Positions 2,304 through 28,973 of a stretch of 34,194 nt of DNA are shown piece by piece. The first letter of the stretch is position 1, and every line of letters starts with the position of its first letter. Made by a program: the position numbers and the translations under genes. Under the pieces are notes generated by a model that worked only from the letters and a program-made list of their open reading frames with translations, was not told the origin of the DNA and did no database searches. The DNA is from a virus (lineage: Duplodnaviria; Heunggongvirae; Uroviricota; Caudoviricetes). The stretch is from IMG/VR virus record IMGVR_UViG_2541047826_000010. One strand, written 5' to 3'.

Positions 2304-2983
2304 CTGGCCTCCAGTTTCTGTTGTTCCTGCCCACTGACCGGGCGGTGCAGTCTGACGTTCTGCCCTTCACGAAACCCCGCATAGCGCGAGGCGTCGCCAT
2401 TGCGGCTTCTTCCCGGTTTACGCGCCCTGGTGGTTTGCGTTTGCGGGTATTTATGTTCCAGCCACTGTTGCATCAGTTCACGCTCATCATCGGTCAGGGC
2501 AAAGGACTGTATTTCACTGATAACGGCCAGTACCCAGCCTTCAGCAAACTGGTTTCCACGGCTGGTACGGGTGGCGTTTTTTATTCTTTTGTTCTGTGCG
2601 CTGATATACTGCTGACGCGCCTTTTTCAGTTGGCGGACCAGCACTTCCCAGGTGTATGCAGCCAGTGCCGCTCGTTCCCGGTTACCGTAGAACCCCACAG
2701 ACGGATGCGTGCCGGGGTGAATGATGGAGTTAACACCAAATGCCTCGCGGATGATGTTCATCAGGCCCAGCATGTAGCGCGGTGGACGGAGACTGCCTGT
2801 CGGCCAGTAATGACTGATGGTTTCATCAATATCACTCATAGCAATGTCGGAATGTGTGATGCCGTGAACATCCATCAGTTTACGGGCTCGGCGCAGTGCC
2901 AGAGCGGCCTCGTGCGGGTTGCCGGATGCGGCCAGCGCCAGCAACTTTTTCAGTTTCTCAATGTGTTTATTCTGGTCTGTCAT
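2300..2983 (-). CDS. DUF2786-like early protein, unknown function
   Basis: N-terminal KHIEKLKKLLALAASGNPHEAALALRRARKLM motif resembles the DUF2786 signature (from memory); start moved to ATG 2983, which overlaps the upstream stop (ATGA) and has SD GGAGA. Confidence 0.55.
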   Translation of the reverse strand: MTDQNKHIEKLKKLLALAASGNPHEAALALRRARKLMDVHGITHSDIAMSDIDETISHYWPTGSLRPPRYMLGLMNIIREAFGVNSIIHPGTHPSVGFYGNRERAALAAYTWEVLVRQLKKARQQYISAQNKRIKNATRTSRGNQFAEGWVLAVISEIQSFALTDDERELMQQWLEHKYPQTQTTRARKPGRSRNGDASRYAGFREGQNVRLHRPVSGQEQQKLEAR

Positions 2984-3195
2984 TGTTCTGTATCTCCGGT
3001 ATTTTTCTGCCGTTTCCATGCCCGGACAGCGTCGGACAGCTCTTTCAGGCTGTATGCTGCTTTAAGCTTTTCCCATAACCACTGTGTTGTTATGTGCATC
3101 AGCAGGGCAGCCAGGGCTGCCCCCGCACTGAGGCATGTCGCCAGGCCAGTAAGAATCAGTGTCCATGCGGTGATTTCCCTGAGTATGTCAGCCAT
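2980..3195 (-). CDS. small membrane protein
   Basis: 71 aa, one clear TM segment (WTLILTGLATCLSAGAALAALLM); SD GGGAGG 8 nt upstream. Confidence 0.5.
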   Translation of the reverse strand: MADILREITAWTLILTGLATCLSAGAALAALLMHITTQWLWEKLKAAYSLKELSDAVRAWKRQKNTGDTEQ

Positions 3196-3209
3196 TGAAT
3201 GCCTCCCGG

Positions 3210-3506
3210 TTACTCGTTCGTGTAAATCACGCCCAGTCGTGCAGCCAGACGTTCCAGTTTTTTCTGTTTGTGGAAGTCAATCAGCCGGTCCATCCCCTGA
3301 AGGCGCAATTGCTCTGTCATGATTTCCACGTCTGCCAGCTCTGCCGCGAGGTCACTTTCGCTGCCCTGTCCGTTCAGATTGCGGGCAGCACTGGCCGCCA
3401 GTTCAGCGGCCTCTTCTGTCAGTTTCAGGGCCTGTGCGTCCGGCCCGAAACGCTGCAGGGCCAGACGGTAGAGGGCGGTGCGGGTGAGTATGGTGTTCCG
3501 TGTCAT
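3210..3506 (-). CDS. MazG-like nucleotide pyrophosphohydrolase (all-alpha NTP-PPase fold), putative
   Basis: 98 aa with ExxE (EEAAE) followed about 20 residues later by ExxD (ELAD), the metal-binding signature of small MazG/HisE-type NTP pyrophosphatases; SD GAGGG upstream. Confidence 0.45.
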   Translation of the reverse strand: MTRNTILTRTALYRLALQRFGPDAQALKLTEEAAELAASAARNLNGQGSESDLAAELADVEIMTEQLRLQGMDRLIDFHKQKKLERLAARLGVIYTNE

Positions 3507-3515
3507 GCCGCGCCC

Positions 3516-3788
3516 TCAGTGCTTCCGGCTGACGGTGATGTGCAGGCCGCCTTCTGCAGTGGTTTCCATCCGGTACGGCACCTCATGCTCTGCCGTGTGG
3601 GTGAGTGTGTTCACCAGTACCTGCAGGGCAGCCGCCTTTCCGTTGGTCGCCACAATGGCCTGAGCGGCCATACTGATTAGTGCCGTCAGGACGTGCTTCA
3701 CATCGGTGAGGTTGCGGCATTCACACTCGTTGACATAGTGTTCAACAAGGGTTCGGGTGCGCTGTCGTGCTTCCTGTGGGGTAATCAT
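3516..3788 (-). CDS. hypothetical protein
   Basis: 90-aa ORF, ATGA overlap with the upstream zinc-ribbon gene; no recognisable motif. Confidence 0.45.
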   Translation of the reverse strand: MITPQEARQRTRTLVEHYVNECECRNLTDVKHVLTALISMAAQAIVATNGKAAALQVLVNTLTHTAEHEVPYRMETTAEGGLHITVSRKH

Positions 3789-3979
3789 TGCGCGTCCTCC
3801 CTGTCAGGGCGGGAGAATTCCATGACGGGCACGTCCGCCGAAAAATGCTGGCTGCAGTACGGGCAGACCAGGGTGACGCGTACCGCAGGGATGTGGTATT
3901 TACCGGACATCACGGCGATGGCGCTGTGAAAACGCAGGGCTGTTATATCCCTCTCGCACTGAATACATTTAAATATCAT
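3785..3979 (-). CDS. zinc-ribbon protein (CxxC...CxxC), unknown function
   Basis: 64 aa with C5-x2-C8 and C39-x2-C42; SD GAGGAG 8-9 nt upstream of the ATG. Confidence 0.5.
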   Translation of the reverse strand: MIFKCIQCERDITALRFHSAIAVMSGKYHIPAVRVTLVCPYCSQHFSADVPVMEFSRPDREDAQ

Positions 3980-4076
3980 AATTTAATTCTCCTCTGTTTC
4001 CGGCGTGCAGAAGCCCACGGCGCTGACGCTGGAATAAAAAAGAAAATGTTTTTATTAAATAATTAACGTGGTGTGT

Positions 4077-4607
4077 TTACTGCACATCCTGCTCAAAAGG
4101 AATTATTGAAAAATCCTCAATGTCGCTTTTAATGGAAATACCGGGAATATTTTTCACGGCCTCTTTTTCATTCAGGATAGCGTCTTTATTTATTTCCTCT
4201 TTTACACGAATAAAGCGCTCAAGCCCCAGACGTCTCAGTAATTCAATAACATTATCCGCCCCACGGATACTGACTGATGGCGGACGGTTTCGCCACTGCA
4301 CCTCGCCGGTGGTGAGGTTAGCGAACTTCACCTTCCCGTTGCCGGTCAGTTCATCACGGTGTGCCTCACACCATGTCTGAATACCGGACTGCAGTTCGGC
4401 CATGCGTTTTTTCAGGCTCTCGGTGAGCGGGGCATAACGTGCGGTGATATCGCCAATGGCGTCATTCATTTCTGTTTCAGCCCTGACCAGTTCACGTTGT
4501 GCGTCACCGAGCAGTCTGATGCCCTCAATGACCTCTTCGCGTGTCCCCGGTACCCAGAGTGCCGCTGCGGACTTGATACGTTTTGCCCCTTTTGTACTTT
4601 TTGCCAT
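4077..4607 (-). CDS. gam: host-nuclease inhibitor Gam (Mu Gam family, DNA-end binding)
   Basis: 176 aa; MAK...KRIKSAAA..., ...ETEMNDAI..., ...WCEA.RDELT..., ...RPPSVSIRG..., ...ERLGL.RFIR.K.EINK.AIL..., ...GI.IKS.IEDFSIIPFEQ... track Mu Gam along its whole length. Confidence 0.85.
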   Translation of the reverse strand: MAKSTKGAKRIKSAAALWVPGTREEVIEGIRLLGDAQRELVRAETEMNDAIGDITARYAPLTESLKKRMAELQSGIQTWCEAHRDELTGNGKVKFANLTTGEVQWRNRPPSVSIRGADNVIELLRRLGLERFIRVKEEINKDAILNEKEAVKNIPGISIKSDIEDFSIIPFEQDVQ

Positions 4608-25528: not shown

Positions 25529-25864
25529 ATGTCACAGACCCCATCCGATACTTTTAAATTGTCTTATCCCTTCACCACTGCTGCAGGCACCAGAATTGAG
25601 CTGGTTGAACTGAAACGCCTGACGGTAAAAGACCTGAAGCAGGTGCGCAAAATCAGCAAAAACCCGGCAGACTGGGACGAACCGCTGATTGCCCGCAGTA
25701 CTGGTCTTCTCCCGGAAGATCTCGACAATATGGATCTGGCTGATTACCTGCAGTTACAGAAACGATTTCAGCTCATCACGGGGATGGGTGAGAGCAACCA
25801 GGGCGCTGACGCAGGCGCAGGGGCTGCTGGCGAGATGGTTCCGGTTTCAGCCGGGGGAGATTGA
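25529..25864 (+). CDS. tail assembly chaperone (P2 gpE-like)
   Basis: 111 aa; TFKLSYPF...IELVELKRLTVKDL...LLPEDLDNMDLADYLQL matches the gpE-family pattern; sits between the tube and tape-measure genes. Confidence 0.7.
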   Translation: MSQTPSDTFKLSYPFTTAAGTRIELVELKRLTVKDLKQVRKISKNPADWDEPLIARSTGLLPEDLDNMDLADYLQLQKRFQLITGMGESNQGADAGAGAAGEMVPVSAGGD

Positions 25865-25946
25865 TGCCCTCGATACTGACGATCTGGAGATGTGGCTGGA
25901 GCAGGCTGAAGAGCAAATAAAAAGCGAGTACGGCGACAAATCATAG
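25529..25946 (+). CDS. candidate frameshift-extended chaperone (gpE+E'-like), shift +1 or -2 at the G5 run 25853-25857
   Basis: An overlapping ORF in the +1 frame continues past the gpE stop with a protein-like acidic tail (EIDALDTDDLEMWLEQAEEQIKSEYGDKS) and has no plausible start of its own; G-run three codons before the stop. Confidence 0.4.
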
Positions 25947-26021: not shown

Positions 26022-28973
26022 ATGTCGGGACAGTTTTCAGTCGGCGTTGTTATCGGCGGGATGATTGGTAGCACATTCCGTTCTGCAATGAGCGGTACCC
26101 GCCGTGCGCTTGATTCCCTGAGCGATACCTCACGCCGCCTGCAGGAACGTCAGAACGCTTTAACCCGTGCAACAGAACGTTATGGTCAACTGGGTTCTTC
26201 CCGGATGCAGCATCTCAACAGCGAGCTGCTGCGGGTAAGCCGCACCATGGAGCAAATTGAGCGCCAGCAGCGCCGTCTGTCAGCGGCATCCGCTACCAGT
26301 GATGCGCTGAAAGCTAACCGCATGGCGCTGTATGGTCAGGGGATTGAAGCGTATGGCATGGCACAGACTGTTTATCATACGGTTTCCCCTGCCGTTCAGC
26401 AGTCCATGTCTTTTCAGGACAAAATGATTGATATGTCGATCACCGCAAAATATGACAATAAAACGCGGGATGCACTTGCCGGACAGATAAAAGGCTGGGC
26501 GCTTAAATACAATCAGTATCAGGATGAGCTGCAGGAGGCGGTGGGTTCACTCATCAGCGACAATATTGATAATGTGTCAGATATCGGTTTTCTGATGCCG
26601 GATATTGCCCGCGCGGCAACGGCAACACGCACGTCTGCTCAGGACTGGGCAAAAGTGGCCGCAGTCTGGCAAAACTCCCTGAAAGGTGCGGCCAGAGATT
26701 TTGGTGCCGTTCAGAATATTATGGCTTATGCCGGTGACCAGGGGTCATTTGAAATCCCGGATCAGGTCAAGTGGATGCAGTCCCTGGCCCCAATGATGGC
26801 GGGTATTGCCAGTGGAAAAGAGGCTGTTGCTGAAATCGGGGCCAGTCTCCAGATAGCAAAAATCGGTGCAGGTTCCACCGACGAAGCAGCCAATAATTTT
26901 AAAAACTTTCTTACCAAAATTTTTGCCCGCGATACTCAGAAACAGTTTGCTGATCTGGGTATTGATTTGCAGGGATCTATTGCGAGTTATAAAGCTGCGG
27001 GGATCTCTCCGATTGAAGGGATGTTGAGTGTTATAGAACGTTACCTCAATGCCAAAAGCCCCGAAGCGCTGGCCGGCTTCAAATCAGCCATGAAAATAAA
27101 GAATGATACGGCAAGAGATGAGGCACTTCAGGCTCTGGCGAAAAACTTTGGTCTGGGCGATATGTTCGCGGATATGCAGGTCATGGCATTTATCCGCCCG
27201 ATGCTGGCCAACATGGACAGATATCGAGAGATCCGTGCCGGTGCTCTCAGGGCTGCGGATAACGATTTGCTTGCCAGTGCTTATGATCAGCGGCTGAAAT
27301 CTCCCCTTGAAGCCACTAAAGCACTTATGGTCAGCAGTCGTGATCTGGCAATTACGCTGGGCGATCAATTAGCTCCATCTTTTATTTCTCTGACTCAGGA
27401 ACTGCTTCCACTCATTCAGGGGGCAAAACACTGGGTAGCGACTCACCCGCAATTTGTCAGTGGGGCTTTTAAGCTCATCAGTGCGCTCCTTGCGATTAAG
27501 ATAGCGACTGTTGGTCTCAAACTGGGGCTGAATCTCCTTATTTCCCCCTTTGTAAGTGTCTGGAAAAATGCTGTTTTACTTCGGGCCAACTGGCTTCGTC
27601 TGTCGCTCGCACTGGGGCAAGGCGGTAAGCTCCGCTGGCTGGTGACCGGATTTAGCGCCGTCGCCAAAGGAGCCAGAACACTGAGTGGCGTGCTCTCCGG
27701 GGGGCTGGTTCGCGGAATTATGCTCGCCGGACGTGCTGTTCTCTGGATTGGACGTGCGCTGATGATGAATCCCATCGGTCTCGTTATCACCGCTGTCGCG
27801 GCAGCAGCTTACCTTATCTACCGCAACTGGGGGGCAGTCAGTGGCTGGTTTAAACAGCGCTGGGCAGACATTCAGGAAGCCTTTAACGGCGGCATTGTGG
27901 GAATTGGTAAGTTGCTGATTAACTGGTCGCCGGCAGGCCTGCTCTATAAAGCCTTTGCGGCTGCGCTGAAATATTTCGGCGTTGCTCTGCCGGCAAAGTT
28001 CACCGACTTCGGTGGCCATCTTATCGACGGTCTGATTAACGGTATCAAAAACAAATGGGGGTCGCTCAAATCCAGTGTAACCGGAATGGGTGACAGCATC
28101 AGTAGCTGGTTTAAACAGTGCTGGGCTGACATTCAGGAAGCCTTTAACGGCGGTATCGCGGGAACTGGTAAGCTGCTGATTAACTGGTCGCCGGCAGGTC
28201 TGCTCTATAAAGCCTTTGCAGCTGCGCTGAAATATCTTGGTGTTGATCTGCCGGCAAAGTTCACCGACTTCGGTGGCCATCTTGTCGACGGTCTGATTAA
28301 CGGTATCAAAAACAAATGGGAGTCGCTCAAATCCAGTGTAACCGGAATGGGTGACAGCATCAGTGGCTGGTTCAGCGAAAAGCTGGGCATTCATTCGCCG
28401 AGCCGCGTGTTTATGGGCTTTGGTGACAATATCGCGCAGGGGGCCGCCATTGGCCTGCAGCGGACCACTCCGCTTGCAGCTCTGGCCGGGCAGCGAATGG
28501 CCAGTGAACTGCTCCCCAAAATGCCCGTGAGCATTCAGGGGCCAGAAATACGGGATAACACTTCAGGTGTTCGCTTCAGTATGCCGTTGCCCGATATCAA
28601 TGGGTTTATGTCGTCTGCTAAAAATGCGATCGGAGCCGTAATCAATAGTTTGTCTTCCATGCCCGCTATTCCGCTCTCCACCCGGGCATCGATTTTACCA
28701 GGGCAACGTCTGGCAAATGAGATGACACCGGATGTTCCCCGTATCCCCTCGCCTGAAATCCTGGCTGCCGGATATTCAGGCCGTGGTGCAGCTGCAACCG
28801 GCGGTGGAACGTCTGGTGGTATCCAGGTCAGCTTTAATCCTCAGTTTTTCCTCAATGGCAGGGAAACCACAGCGCCTGCCGGACTGACTGGCGCCCTGAA
28901 TATGAGCCTGCATGAGCTGGAAAAAATGCTGGAGCGTCTGCTGGCTCAGAAACAACGTAAGGAGTACCGCTGA
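26022..28973 (+). CDS. tail tape measure protein
   Basis: 983 aa, helical N-terminal half, internal hydrophobic segments, position after the gpE-like chaperone; contains an 87-aa tandem duplication. Confidence 0.9.
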   Translation: MSGQFSVGVVIGGMIGSTFRSAMSGTRRALDSLSDTSRRLQERQNALTRATERYGQLGSSRMQHLNSELLRVSRTMEQIERQQRRLSAASATSDALKANRMALYGQGIEAYGMAQTVYHTVSPAVQQSMSFQDKMIDMSITAKYDNKTRDALAGQIKGWALKYNQYQDELQEAVGSLISDNIDNVSDIGFLMPDIARAATATRTSAQDWAKVAAVWQNSLKGAARDFGAVQNIMAYAGDQGSFEIPDQVKWMQSLAPMMAGIASGKEAVAEIGASLQIAKIGAGSTDEAANNFKNFLTKIFARDTQKQFADLGIDLQGSIASYKAAGISPIEGMLSVIERYLNAKSPEALAGFKSAMKIKNDTARDEALQALAKNFGLGDMFADMQVMAFIRPMLANMDRYREIRAGALRAADNDLLASAYDQRLKSPLEATKALMVSSRDLAITLGDQLAPSFISLTQELLPLIQGAKHWVATHPQFVSGAFKLISALLAIKIATVGLKLGLNLLISPFVSVWKNAVLLRANWLRLSLALGQGGKLRWLVTGFSAVAKGARTLSGVLSGGLVRGIMLAGRAVLWIGRALMMNPIGLVITAVAAAAYLIYRNWGAVSGWFKQRWADIQEAFNGGIVGIGKLLINWSPAGLLYKAFAAALKYFGVALPAKFTDFGGHLIDGLINGIKNKWGSLKSSVTGMGDSISSWFKQCWADIQEAFNGGIAGTGKLLINWSPAGLLYKAFAAALKYLGVDLPAKFTDFGGHLVDGLINGIKNKWESLKSSVTGMGDSISGWFSEKLGIHSPSRVFMGFGDNIAQGAAIGLQRTTPLAALAGQRMASELLPKMPVSIQGPEIRDNTSGVRFSMPLPDINGFMSSAKNAIGAVINSLSSMPAIPLSTRASILPGQRLANEMTPDVPRIPSPEILAAGYSGRGAAATGGGTSGGIQVSFNPQFFLNGRETTAPAGLTGALNMSLHELEKMLERLLAQKQRKEYR
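27844..28365. repeat. 261-bp tandem direct duplication (2 copies) inside the tape measure gene
   Basis: GCTGGTTTAAACAG... recurs at 27844 and 28105 (period 261 bp = 87 codons); the two protein copies differ at only a few residues. Confidence 0.85.

Follow-up and report, generated by a model that had tools for sequence, protein, structure and literature searches.

Length changes in tape measure proteins

Internal in-frame changes of length have reportedly been engineered in the tape measure proteins of phages lambda (gpH; Katsura & Hendrix 1984), T4 (gp29; Abuladze et al. 1994) and TP901-1 (Pedersen et al. 2000). To our knowledge, tail length changed in these three phages with each viable internal deletion or duplication that was tried. 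This ruler rule is drawn mostly from siphophages and T4, not from Mu-like or BcepMu-like tails. Tape measure proteins with variable numbers of 11/18-aa repeats marked by tryptophan or phenylalanine (W/F) reportedly appear in more than one published account, among them Siponen et al. 2009. For TP901-1, engineered in-frame length changes are documented (Mahony et al. 2016, PMC5099701), and deletions in repeat and in hydrophobic regions shorten the tail in proportion to the residues removed, each residue accounting for about 0.15 nm of ruler (PMC5099701). Ruler precedents in lambda and T4 are cited in passages of PMC13585406 and PMC3271669. The 11/18-aa W/F repeats stand in tandem, and their number varies by duplication and loss (Belcaid, Bergeron & Poisson 2011, PMC3271669).

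The gene studied here lies in a window of 34,194 nucleotides, which is the whole stretch of viral DNA analysed, and carries a tandem repeat of 261 bp. Like the lambda, T4 and TP901-1 constructs, this repeat changes the length of a tape measure protein internally and in frame, and a proportional change of the tail would be expected. Unlike those laboratory constructs with their measured tails, its variants are natural alleles of Escherichia coli prophages known from sequence alone. The units also resemble the 11/18-aa repeats in being arranged in tandem, varying in count and adding to protein length. However, each unit is 87 aa long and has no [FW]-x10 pattern, and there are one to three nearly identical copies with readable recombination junctions, as opposed to tens of degenerate repeats. 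Hybrid junction units, gene-conversion tracts and gain or loss of whole units are shared with the repeat arrays of bacterial surface proteins, from which this array differs in being minimal (two units) and in residing in a virion ruler protein, where the expected phenotype is a particle dimension. The repeat is an ordinary kind of feature, yet a clean natural example.

The tape measure gene and its repeat

The features of the gene that are referred to below are the following.

26022-28973, plus strand: tape measure protein gene, 983 aa, carrying the repeat (ORF listing, PF10145, RefSeq)
27453-27545, plus strand: first hydrophobic segment, aa 478-508 (Kyte-Doolittle, 19-aa window mean of at least 1.6)
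27756-27821, plus strand: second hydrophobic segment, aa 579-600, ending 6 residues upstream of the repeat (Kyte-Doolittle)
27838-27850, plus strand: 13-bp motif TCAGTGGCTGGTT, opening the array (read directly in the sequence)
27840-28100, plus strand: repeat unit 1 (u1), aa 607-693, SGWFKQRWADIQEAF...GMGDSI, diagnostic pattern 1^16
28101-28361, plus strand: repeat unit 2 (u2), aa 694-780, diagnostic pattern 2^16
28360-28372, plus strand: copy of the 13-bp motif TCAGTGGCTGGTT directly 3' of u2 (sequence, identity plot)
28488-28712, plus strand: C-terminal insertion of about 75 aa, bounded by GQRxAxE motifs (alignment with the phage KP12 protein)

The 983-aa ORF is the longest in the window, has central hydrophobic segments, and lies downstream of the sheath, tube and tail assembly genes and upstream of the baseplate genes, as is characteristic of tape measure genes. 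Its protein matches PF10145 (PhageMin_Tail, TP901-type TMP) at aa 159-340 (E=2e-20, 74 bits against a cut-off of 33.2), a family present in all tape measure homologues retrieved. A 100%-identical gene in strain AVS0225 carries the RefSeq label 'phage tail tape measure protein', and the RefSeq locus order there is sheath, tube, tail assembly protein, TMP, tail protein, X, D, V, W, J, I. PhiKM, which is 96.6% identical, classed as Bcepmuvirus and deposited as an isolated phage, has the same gene order as this tail module; a literature search on PhiKM returned nothing relevant. Annotation of the identical AVS0225 prophage further includes an integrase-catalytic-domain protein, an ExeA family protein, DUF935 and a head morphogenesis protein in addition to sheath and tube. 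By these similarities, which extend to the contractile tail module, Mu-type head genes, DDE transposase and MuB/ExeA-like ATPase of such phages, the window carries a Bcepmuvirus-like E. coli prophage, that is, Mu-like, contractile-tailed and, judging from annotation, transposable.

Tandem Repeats Finder reports a single array at 27838-28372 (period 261, 2.0 copies, 93% matches, 0 indels, score 958), and the next best array in the window scores 39. A plot of identity at an offset of 261 likewise has a sharp onset of similarity near 27838 and an end near 28372. The two units differ at 16 of 261 nucleotides (93.9% identity). Of the codons affected, 7 are synonymous and 8 non-synonymous, and 8 amino acids change. 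Together with the PF10145 match, the array and the unit alignment confirm the claim of the first-pass annotation that 87 codons are duplicated in tandem and in frame within a tape measure gene; its coordinates (27844-28365, 522 nt) refer to that array with a small shift of phase. The motif TCAGTGGCTGGTT recurs with 12 of 13 bases at the u1/u2 junction (28099-28111), and single-copy relatives have an imperfect version at each end of the 261-bp segment. The module is rich in glycine (14 of 87 residues) and sits just downstream of the second hydrophobic segment. The published [FW]-x10-[FW] runs and 11-11-18 pattern are absent from the 983-aa protein, which has no three consecutive F/W residues spaced by 11. 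An AlphaFold2 model of aa 560-830, made from the single sequence, is of low confidence (mean pLDDT 44) and is no reliable guide to how far the module extends.

Copy number in E. coli and other hosts

The gene is matched in 636 of 5,426 complete E. coli genomes, in many of them at full length, in a single piece and with 99.5-100% identity. In many genomes there are 2-12 matching places, representing several related prophages. A single-copy construct is matched at 80% coverage or more in 67 genomes and the native two-copy stretch in 508. Because the latter number takes in the 67 single-copy genomes, about 441 genomes have two copies, and in two complete genomes the two-copy allele is 100% identical to the window. 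The signature of three copies, 77% coverage of the two-copy query, is found in about 120 genomes, a number that is an estimate from this coverage class. At least 40 genomes align over 1283 of 1283 nt at 99.8% to a synthetic array of u1, a u2/u1 hybrid and u2; this query reaches 80% coverage in 628 of 634 genomes through the joining of pieces, and only single-piece 99.8% matches were counted. All of these counts score the best place in each genome and are not independent events, many genomes being clonal (for example, ST131).

Close relatives form an exact 87-aa ladder of proteins, with 896 aa for one unit, 983 aa for two and 1070 aa for three, as detected by HMM among the 120 best, nearly identical, homologous proteins. 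The corresponding gene lengths in complete genomes are 2691, 2952 and 3213 nt, and frame and full length are retained in every copy-number class. Relatives in other genera have one copy in every one sampled. Single-copy relatives, which the first-pass annotation had presupposed, exist as 896-aa and 821-aa proteins. The 821-aa form occurs in Escherichia phage Phi06_2974 B, Klebsiella phage KP12 and many E. coli strains. These genes are orthologous to that of the window, with the same synteny and 86-90% nucleotide identity over the module. However, their proteins have one unit, lack the 75-aa insert and are 162 aa shorter.

The insertion of about 75 aa, absent from the 821-aa lineage, represents another and older change of length in this gene. 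Strain AF22 combines an ancestral-like single copy with this insert. Independent in-frame duplications over the same module are found in two other lineages, L075 and L094, with lengths of 564 bp (188 aa) and 705 bp (235 aa), respectively. Their periods exceed 500 nt and were missed by Tandem Repeats Finder; they were recovered by a repeat search and offset identity. The L075 duplication takes in a hydrophobic segment as well.

Recombination between the units

Copies can be told apart by the 16 diagnostic u1/u2 sites. The single copies of UPEC129 and DLI.5a read 1^9 2^7, that of F1140 reads 1^16, and those of TUM14759 and AVS0947 read 11 2^14. Among three-copy genes, the middle unit reads 2^7 1^9 in AR_0015 and 2121^13 in G749 and SF-173. 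The two-copy strain EC958 has a gene-conversion tract (1122222211111111). There are at least three one-copy and at least two three-copy junction classes at the DNA level, with more at the protein level, and the hybrids are of reciprocal types, u1/u2 in deletions and u2/u1 in expansions. Because the crossover points vary among alleles, unequal homologous recombination has acted repeatedly. As read from these junctions, the array evolves by this process, with alleles that differ by whole units. By these sequence patterns, the 94%-identical copies are substrates for both unequal homologous recombination and gene conversion, which repeatedly yield deletions to one copy (896 aa, with a u1/u2 hybrid) and expansions to three (1070 aa, with u1, a u2/u1 hybrid and u2). 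The recombinants with one and three copies in many genomes support the earlier suggestion of an unstable repeat that gives rise to variants.

The 896-aa single copies were considered as the ancestral form and rejected, since they consist of clean u1/u2 blocks, unlike the mixed outgroup pattern 2122211221212212. States of u1 and u2 are mixed in outgroup units, and the ancestral-like single copies (AF22 and the 821-aa lineage) have 19-27 private substitutions.

Origin and age of the duplication

Between u1 and u2, dS is 0.148, dN is 0.041 and omega is 0.28, and orthologous comparisons give an omega of about 0.1. Either unit is separated from the sampled single-copy lineages by a dS of 0.37-0.56. 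The same diagnostic differences between u1 and u2 are found in prophages with different flanks, for example, in the ST131 strain EC958, and because they are common to such diverged backgrounds, the duplication arose before this group of prophages spread in E. coli. The first-pass annotation had called the duplication recent, which does not hold for copies that are 6.1% diverged and share their differences across diverged flanks. Only the one- and three-copy derivatives look recent.

The ancestral gene would have had one copy together with the 75-aa C-terminal insert, and the 261-bp segment would then have been duplicated in tandem. A likely route is slippage or illegitimate recombination at the flanking direct repeat of about 13 bp, TCAGTrGCTGGTT, which encodes S-x-W-F; from the position of these motifs, the microhomology probably mediated the original duplication. 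The copies then diverged to 6% under purifying selection, with the two-copy allele spreading through E. coli. A literature search found no earlier reports of this duplication. Taken as a whole, the account of a copy-number-variable module, with this origin and spread, ongoing recombination and the predicted consequence for the ruler, is likely to be correct.

As the first-pass annotation had warned, assemblies of this gene do fail at a repeat of such a size. In PhiKM the tape measure CDS is flagged at the repeat as 'disrupted by sequencing gap', contig L042 is scrambled into 3.4 plus 4 copies with a poly-G junction between them, and intact 1070-aa three-copy ORFs are annotated as pseudogene fragments. 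Such trouble might suggest that the true sequence has a single copy that was expanded by the assembler. However, the 16 differences between the copies are not those of a collapsed or expanded pile of identical reads, and about 440 complete genomes from independent projects have the same two-copy structure and copy-specific differences, so that the chance of an artefact, the outcome that would have overturned the earlier claim, is negligible. The pseudogene flags that several three-copy genes carry in RefSeq could also be taken to mean that the prophage is defective and that its copy-number changes are neutral decay of a dead gene. This is very improbable, as the flagged genes are intact ORFs, all copy-number classes are in frame and of full length, omega is below 1, the 96.6%-identical PhiKM was deposited as an isolated phage, and both the window and AVS0225 have the entire late-gene module in intact form. 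A different history for the two units is that they came from two phage alleles that had already diverged and were joined in tandem when co-resident relatives underwent a single unequal or illegitimate recombination. The 2-12 matching places in many E. coli genomes would provide such relatives, and the hybrid units are clear cases of recombination between such copies. Nevertheless, this origin is unlikely: the dS of 0.15 between u1 and u2 is lower than that to any sampled single-copy lineage, no natural single-copy lineage was found that is a diverged pure u1 or u2 with private changes, and the pure-u1 copy of F1140 matches u1 at 261 of 261 nt, which fits a terminal crossover. Duplication within one gene, followed by divergence, is thus the preferred history.

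The repeat is also a practical trap. It breaks short-read assemblies, and PGAP (NCBI, RefSeq) calls intact three-copy genes pseudogenes; such assembly and annotation errors can give an intact prophage a defective look.

Expected effects on tail length

At about 0.15 nm of ruler per residue, each copy of the 87-aa module would add about 13 nm, the equivalent of some three tube/sheath rings or around 9% of the tail. Multiplying residues by 0.15 nm gives predicted ruler lengths of about 134, 147 and 160 nm for one, two and three copies, values that set an upper limit on the tail. If the ruler rule applies, copy number should set stepwise tail lengths and form a natural ladder. The region has expanded independently at least three times in this family, which may mark it as a dedicated section where the ruler is 'adjustable'. 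We tentatively propose that a widespread group of E. coli prophages, ST131 copies included, maintains a natural three-step polymorphism in tail length that is continuously made by unequal crossing-over in such a section and is open to selection, for example, by capsule or O-antigen thickness. This broader proposal is possible rather than probable.

The duplication could instead be real and the module lie outside the length-determining ruler, where it may fold back, serve in inserting into the membrane or ejecting DNA, or undergo processing, so that copy number alters ejection, assembly or nothing. Its position directly after a hydrophobic segment would suit a membrane or ejection function better than a straight helical ruler, as would the inclusion of such a segment in the L075 duplication, and the glycine-rich module lacks the 11/18-aa W/F periodicity of classical ruler repeats. 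The omega of 0.28 between copies, compared to about 0.1 for orthologues, suggests relaxed constraint between them. On the other hand, all viable internal changes tested in lambda, T4 and TP901-1 altered tail length, as far as we know. Three independent in-frame expansions and a ladder of intact ORFs with one, two or three copies also fit a tolerant spacer or ruler. Even deletion of a hydrophobic region shortened the TP901-1 tail in proportion (PMC5099701). A module without a role in length is therefore somewhat unlikely, and the ruler reading is preferred. If tail length tracks copy number, the one-, two- and three-copy genes, otherwise about 99% identical and present in sequenced strains, are a ready natural allelic series. 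With it, the ruler model could be put to the test in the contractile tail of a Mu-like phage, as could the importance of tail length for infecting hosts with different surface layers.

Antisense reading frames over the repeat

Three minus-strand ORFs overlap the repeat.

27576-28394, minus strand: 272-aa antisense ORF, spanning both units in another frame (ORF listing)
27944-28132, minus strand: 62-aa antisense ORF, an image of the repeat (ORF listing; no Pfam match)
28205-28390, minus strand: 61-aa antisense ORF, a twin of the preceding one at an offset of 261 nt (ORF listing; no Pfam match)

A Pfam scan of the three ORFs gave nothing above threshold, and all matches of the 272-aa ORF fall below the curated cut-offs; this ORF is probably spurious. 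It was not among the ORFs pointed out in the first-pass annotation. The twin ORFs had been interpreted there as artefacts of the repeat, and this interpretation stands: they have no family matches, they lie inside a conserved plus-strand gene, and a distance of exactly 261 nt separates their low ends.

A tandem repeat in the tape measure gene of a Mu-like prophage

The ORF at 26022-28973 matches the phage minor tail/tape measure family PF10145 (Pfam, E=2e-20). A 100% identical gene on the chromosome of E. coli AVS0225 bears the annotation 'phage tail tape measure protein' and lies between genes for sheath, tube and a tail assembly protein and a set of baseplate genes. Among the early genes, which lie on the opposite strand, are those for a DDE transposase with an integrase catalytic domain and for an ExeA/MuB-like protein. 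Of the deposited phages, Escherichia phage PhiKM comes closest (96.6% identity), and it is assigned to Bcepmuvirus. Given this annotation, gene order, early gene content and closest relative, the window is a Mu-like, contractile-tailed, transposable E. coli prophage.

Tandem Repeats Finder detects just one high-scoring array in the window. It covers 27838-28372 with a period of 261, 2.0 copies, 93% matches, 0 indels and a score of 958, and a trace of identity at an offset of 261 gives it sharp edges.

Tape measure gene, repeat units and hydrophobic segments
26022-28973, plus strand: tape measure ORF hosting the array, 983 aa
27840-28100, plus strand: repeat unit u1, aa 607-693
28101-28361, plus strand: repeat unit u2, aa 694-780
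aa 478-508 of the tape measure protein: hydrophobic segment 1
aa 579-600: hydrophobic segment 2; the repeat starts 6 residues after it

The two units differ at 16 of 261 nt; among the codons affected, 7 differ synonymously and 8 non-synonymously. The repeat is genuine and keeps the reading frame. The first-pass annotation had described a 261-bp in-frame tandem duplication in a tape measure gene, and this description is accurate because the array, its frame, both units and their differences were all recovered in an ORF that matches PF10145. The interval it gave, 27844-28365, is arbitrarily shifted in phase relative to the in-frame units.

Three ORFs lie antisense to the repeat.

Antisense ORFs
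27944-28132, minus strand: 261-nt-offset image of 28205-28390
28205-28390, minus strand: 261-nt-offset image of 27944-28132
27576-28394, minus strand: 272 aa, spanning both units in a frame that differs from that of the twin ORFs

None of the three has a Pfam family match above threshold. The twins had been dismissed as artefacts of the repeat, a sound judgment: they are offset images inside a plus-strand gene conserved across genera. The 272-aa ORF, which has only sub-threshold Pfam matches, is probably spurious as well.

Immediately before the tape measure gene lies the ORF for the tail assembly protein (25529-25864), which overlaps an ORF in another frame (25689-25946). Two overlapping ORFs at this place are the usual layout of a programmed-frameshift chaperone pair (lambda G/GT, P2 E/E+E'). 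Past the window's right end, the AVS0225 locus (L004 31673-37793) has a Gin-like recombinase together with tail-fibre fragments in inverted orientation, an arrangement like that of the Mu G segment, and the prophage end adjoins a truncated irp2 gene (yersiniabactin HMWP2). In AVS0225 the phage apparently integrated within the high-pathogenicity island.

Copy-number classes in complete genomes

Out of 5,426 complete E. coli genomes, 636 have the tape measure gene, and in many of these a single match at 99.5-100% identity spans the full 2952 nt. These matches effectively rule out an assembly artefact. Counts refer to the best place per genome and, since many genomes are clonal (for example, ST131), measure prevalence rather than independent events.

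Genomes were assigned to copy-number classes with three purpose-built queries. A synthetic construct holding one copy reaches at least 80% coverage in 67 complete E. coli genomes. For the native two-copy stretch plus 250-nt flanks the figure is 508, among them the one-copy genomes, whose two matching pieces join (for example, genome matches H131 and H168); subtracting these leaves ~441 two-copy genomes. In most of the remaining ~126, coverage is 77%, as is characteristic of three copies (H171-H182). Proteins fall into the same classes. Among the best 120 protein clusters, three lengths stand out: 26 clusters have 896 aa, 44 have 983 aa and 17 have 1070 aa. A unit HMM finds one, two and three copies in them, respectively. 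Corresponding genes in complete genomes measure 2691 nt (UPEC129), 2952 nt (EC958) and 3213 nt (G749, SF-173), and all classes are intact ORFs.

Recombination junctions

The 16 sites that separate u1 from u2 yield very clean patterns when each is scored as u1-like (1) or u2-like (2).

Unit patterns of representative alleles (superscript counts follow ^)
Two copies, window: 1^16, 2^16
Two copies, ST131 strain EC958 and others: 1122222211111111, 2^16
Three copies, AR_0015 and locus L049: 1^16, 2^7 1^9, 2^16
Three copies, G749, SF-173 and locus L041 (sub-variant in CU568-3 and SK1144): 1121^13, 2121^13, 2^16
One copy, UPEC129, DLI.5a and loci L046 and L047: 1^9 2^7
One copy, F1140: 1^16
One copy, TUM14759 and AVS0947, on an EC958-type flank background: 11 2^14

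Three-copy alleles have a u2/u1 hybrid as their middle unit, whose crossover point takes at least two positions; one-copy alleles consist of u1/u2 hybrid units, among which at least three junctions can be told apart. Further junction classes are visible in protein-level patterns. A synthetic construct of u1, a hybrid of the u2 5' half and u1 3' half, and u2 aligns along its whole length (1283/1283 nt at 99.8%) with no fewer than 40 natural genomes. Judged by these junctions, the one- and three-copy variants are what unequal homologous recombination between copies of 94% identity is expected to yield as reciprocal products, and such variants arose more than once. The EC958-type pattern is a gene-conversion tract in u1. 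An IMG/VR contig (L042, IMGVR_UViG_2740892433_000005, 2483-4432) holds 3.4 + 4 copies, with a frame change at a poly-G junction containing GGCAGGGGGGGGCTG; it is probably misassembled, and a real four-copy allele may lie behind it.

Age and origin of the duplication

The first-pass annotation had proposed comparison with homologous tape measure genes, and single-copy relatives were found both in other genera and in the E. coli/Klebsiella lineage whose protein measures 821 aa (Phi06_2974 B, KP12, MS20655). In every relative recovered from another genus the unit is present once; these genera include Pseudocitrobacter, Buttiauxella, Mixta, Trabulsiella, Intestinirhabdus, Pantoea, Limnobaculum, Apirhabdus, Erwinia, Xenorhabdus, Brenneria and Dickeya. 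Units of the outgroups show a mixture of u1 and u2 states (2122211221212212) along with 19-27 differences of their own; this mixture implies that both copies gained changes of their own after duplication. By the Nei-Gojobori method, u1 and u2 are separated by a dS of 0.148 and dN of 0.041 (omega 0.28), compared with a dS of 0.37-0.56 and omega of ~0.1 to single-copy orthologues. Both copies are under purifying selection. Because the copies are less divergent at synonymous sites than either is from the orthologues, the duplication is younger than the split from single-copy lineages. It also predates the diversification of the two-copy group, in which members have the same copy-specific differences in common despite differing upstream flanks. 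The duplication had been called recent, which sits poorly with this dS and with these common differences; the term fits the one- and three-copy derivatives, not the duplication itself.

A ~75-aa C-terminal segment (window ~28488-28712) with GQRxAxE motifs at both bounds is present in the window protein and its 892-896-aa relatives and absent from the 821-aa lineage. Strain AF22 combines an ancestral-like single copy with this insert, which suggests that an 821-aa form gained the 75-aa insert, then the 87-aa duplication, and afterwards underwent recurrent 87-aa gains and losses.

The array begins with TCAGTGGCTGGTT; the identical 13 bases directly follow the array, and 12 of 13 occur at the unit junction. 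In single-copy relatives, an imperfect TCAGTGGCTGGTT motif (encoding S-x-W-F) occurs at either end of the 261-bp segment. The simplest origin of the duplication would be slippage, or else illegitimate recombination, between such short direct repeats. Two already diverged alleles could conceivably have been joined in tandem instead, but u1 and u2 are mutual closest relatives among everything sampled. Two members of the otherwise single-copy 821-aa lineage have in-frame tandem duplications that include the 87-aa module with different boundaries. One (locus L075, 3079-4234) spans 564 bp (188 aa) in essentially identical copies and includes the second hydrophobic segment; the other (L094, ~3016-4364) spans 705 bp (235 aa) at ~91% identity. 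These are independent duplications, and the region is expandable.

Predicted consequences for tail length

Engineered tape measure duplications that change tail length are already known, and the 87-aa array will not surprise a phage biologist, yet it is a convenient natural allelic series. Like known tape measure repeats, it belongs to proteins whose length varies through internal repeats (PMC3271669). Particular to the E. coli array are a large 87-aa unit, few copies, directly readable junctions and measurable prevalence in complete genomes. An earlier description of this duplication was not found in the literature searched, whose coverage was limited.

Tape measure proteins set tail length at ~0.15 nm per residue, and in TP901-1 deletions in repeat and hydrophobic regions both shorten tails proportionally (PMC5099701). 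Passages of PMC13585406 and PMC3271669 cite lambda gpH and T4 gp29 as precedents, the latter for a contractile tail. At this ratio, each 87-aa unit would add ~13 nm of tail, or about three tube/sheath rings. The three-ring figure takes ring rise to be ~4 nm. The main rival reading, that the module does not form an extended stretch of the ruler, draws on its Gly-rich composition and its position next to the hydrophobic segments. No 11- or 18-aa W/F periodicity occurs in the module, and the sole structure prediction of this region (pLDDT 44) is too low to use.

Effects on assembly and annotation

The first-pass annotation had expected the repeat to trouble assemblies. In PhiKM (L001 4914-5240, PQ738613.1), a 100-N gap falls exactly at the repeat, and the tape measure CDS is split in two as 'disrupted by sequencing gap'. 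RefSeq/PGAP renders the three-copy genes of AR_0015 (L112 296-3508, NZ_CP024862.1) and SK1144 (L120) as two partial pseudogene fragments. The complete 1070-aa ORF of AR_0015 is intact, and the fetched part of the SK1144 ORF runs uninterrupted to the stop codon; the pseudogene calls look like an annotation artefact of the extra repeat. Many three-copy genomes that match the synthetic three-copy query have the same split ('phage tail protein | tape measure protein'). Short, low-coverage contigs of 'Arthrobacter sp.' GMC3 and Y81 (L009, L012, L031) are 94-99% identical to the E. coli prophage tape measure gene and are almost certainly E. coli DNA contamination.
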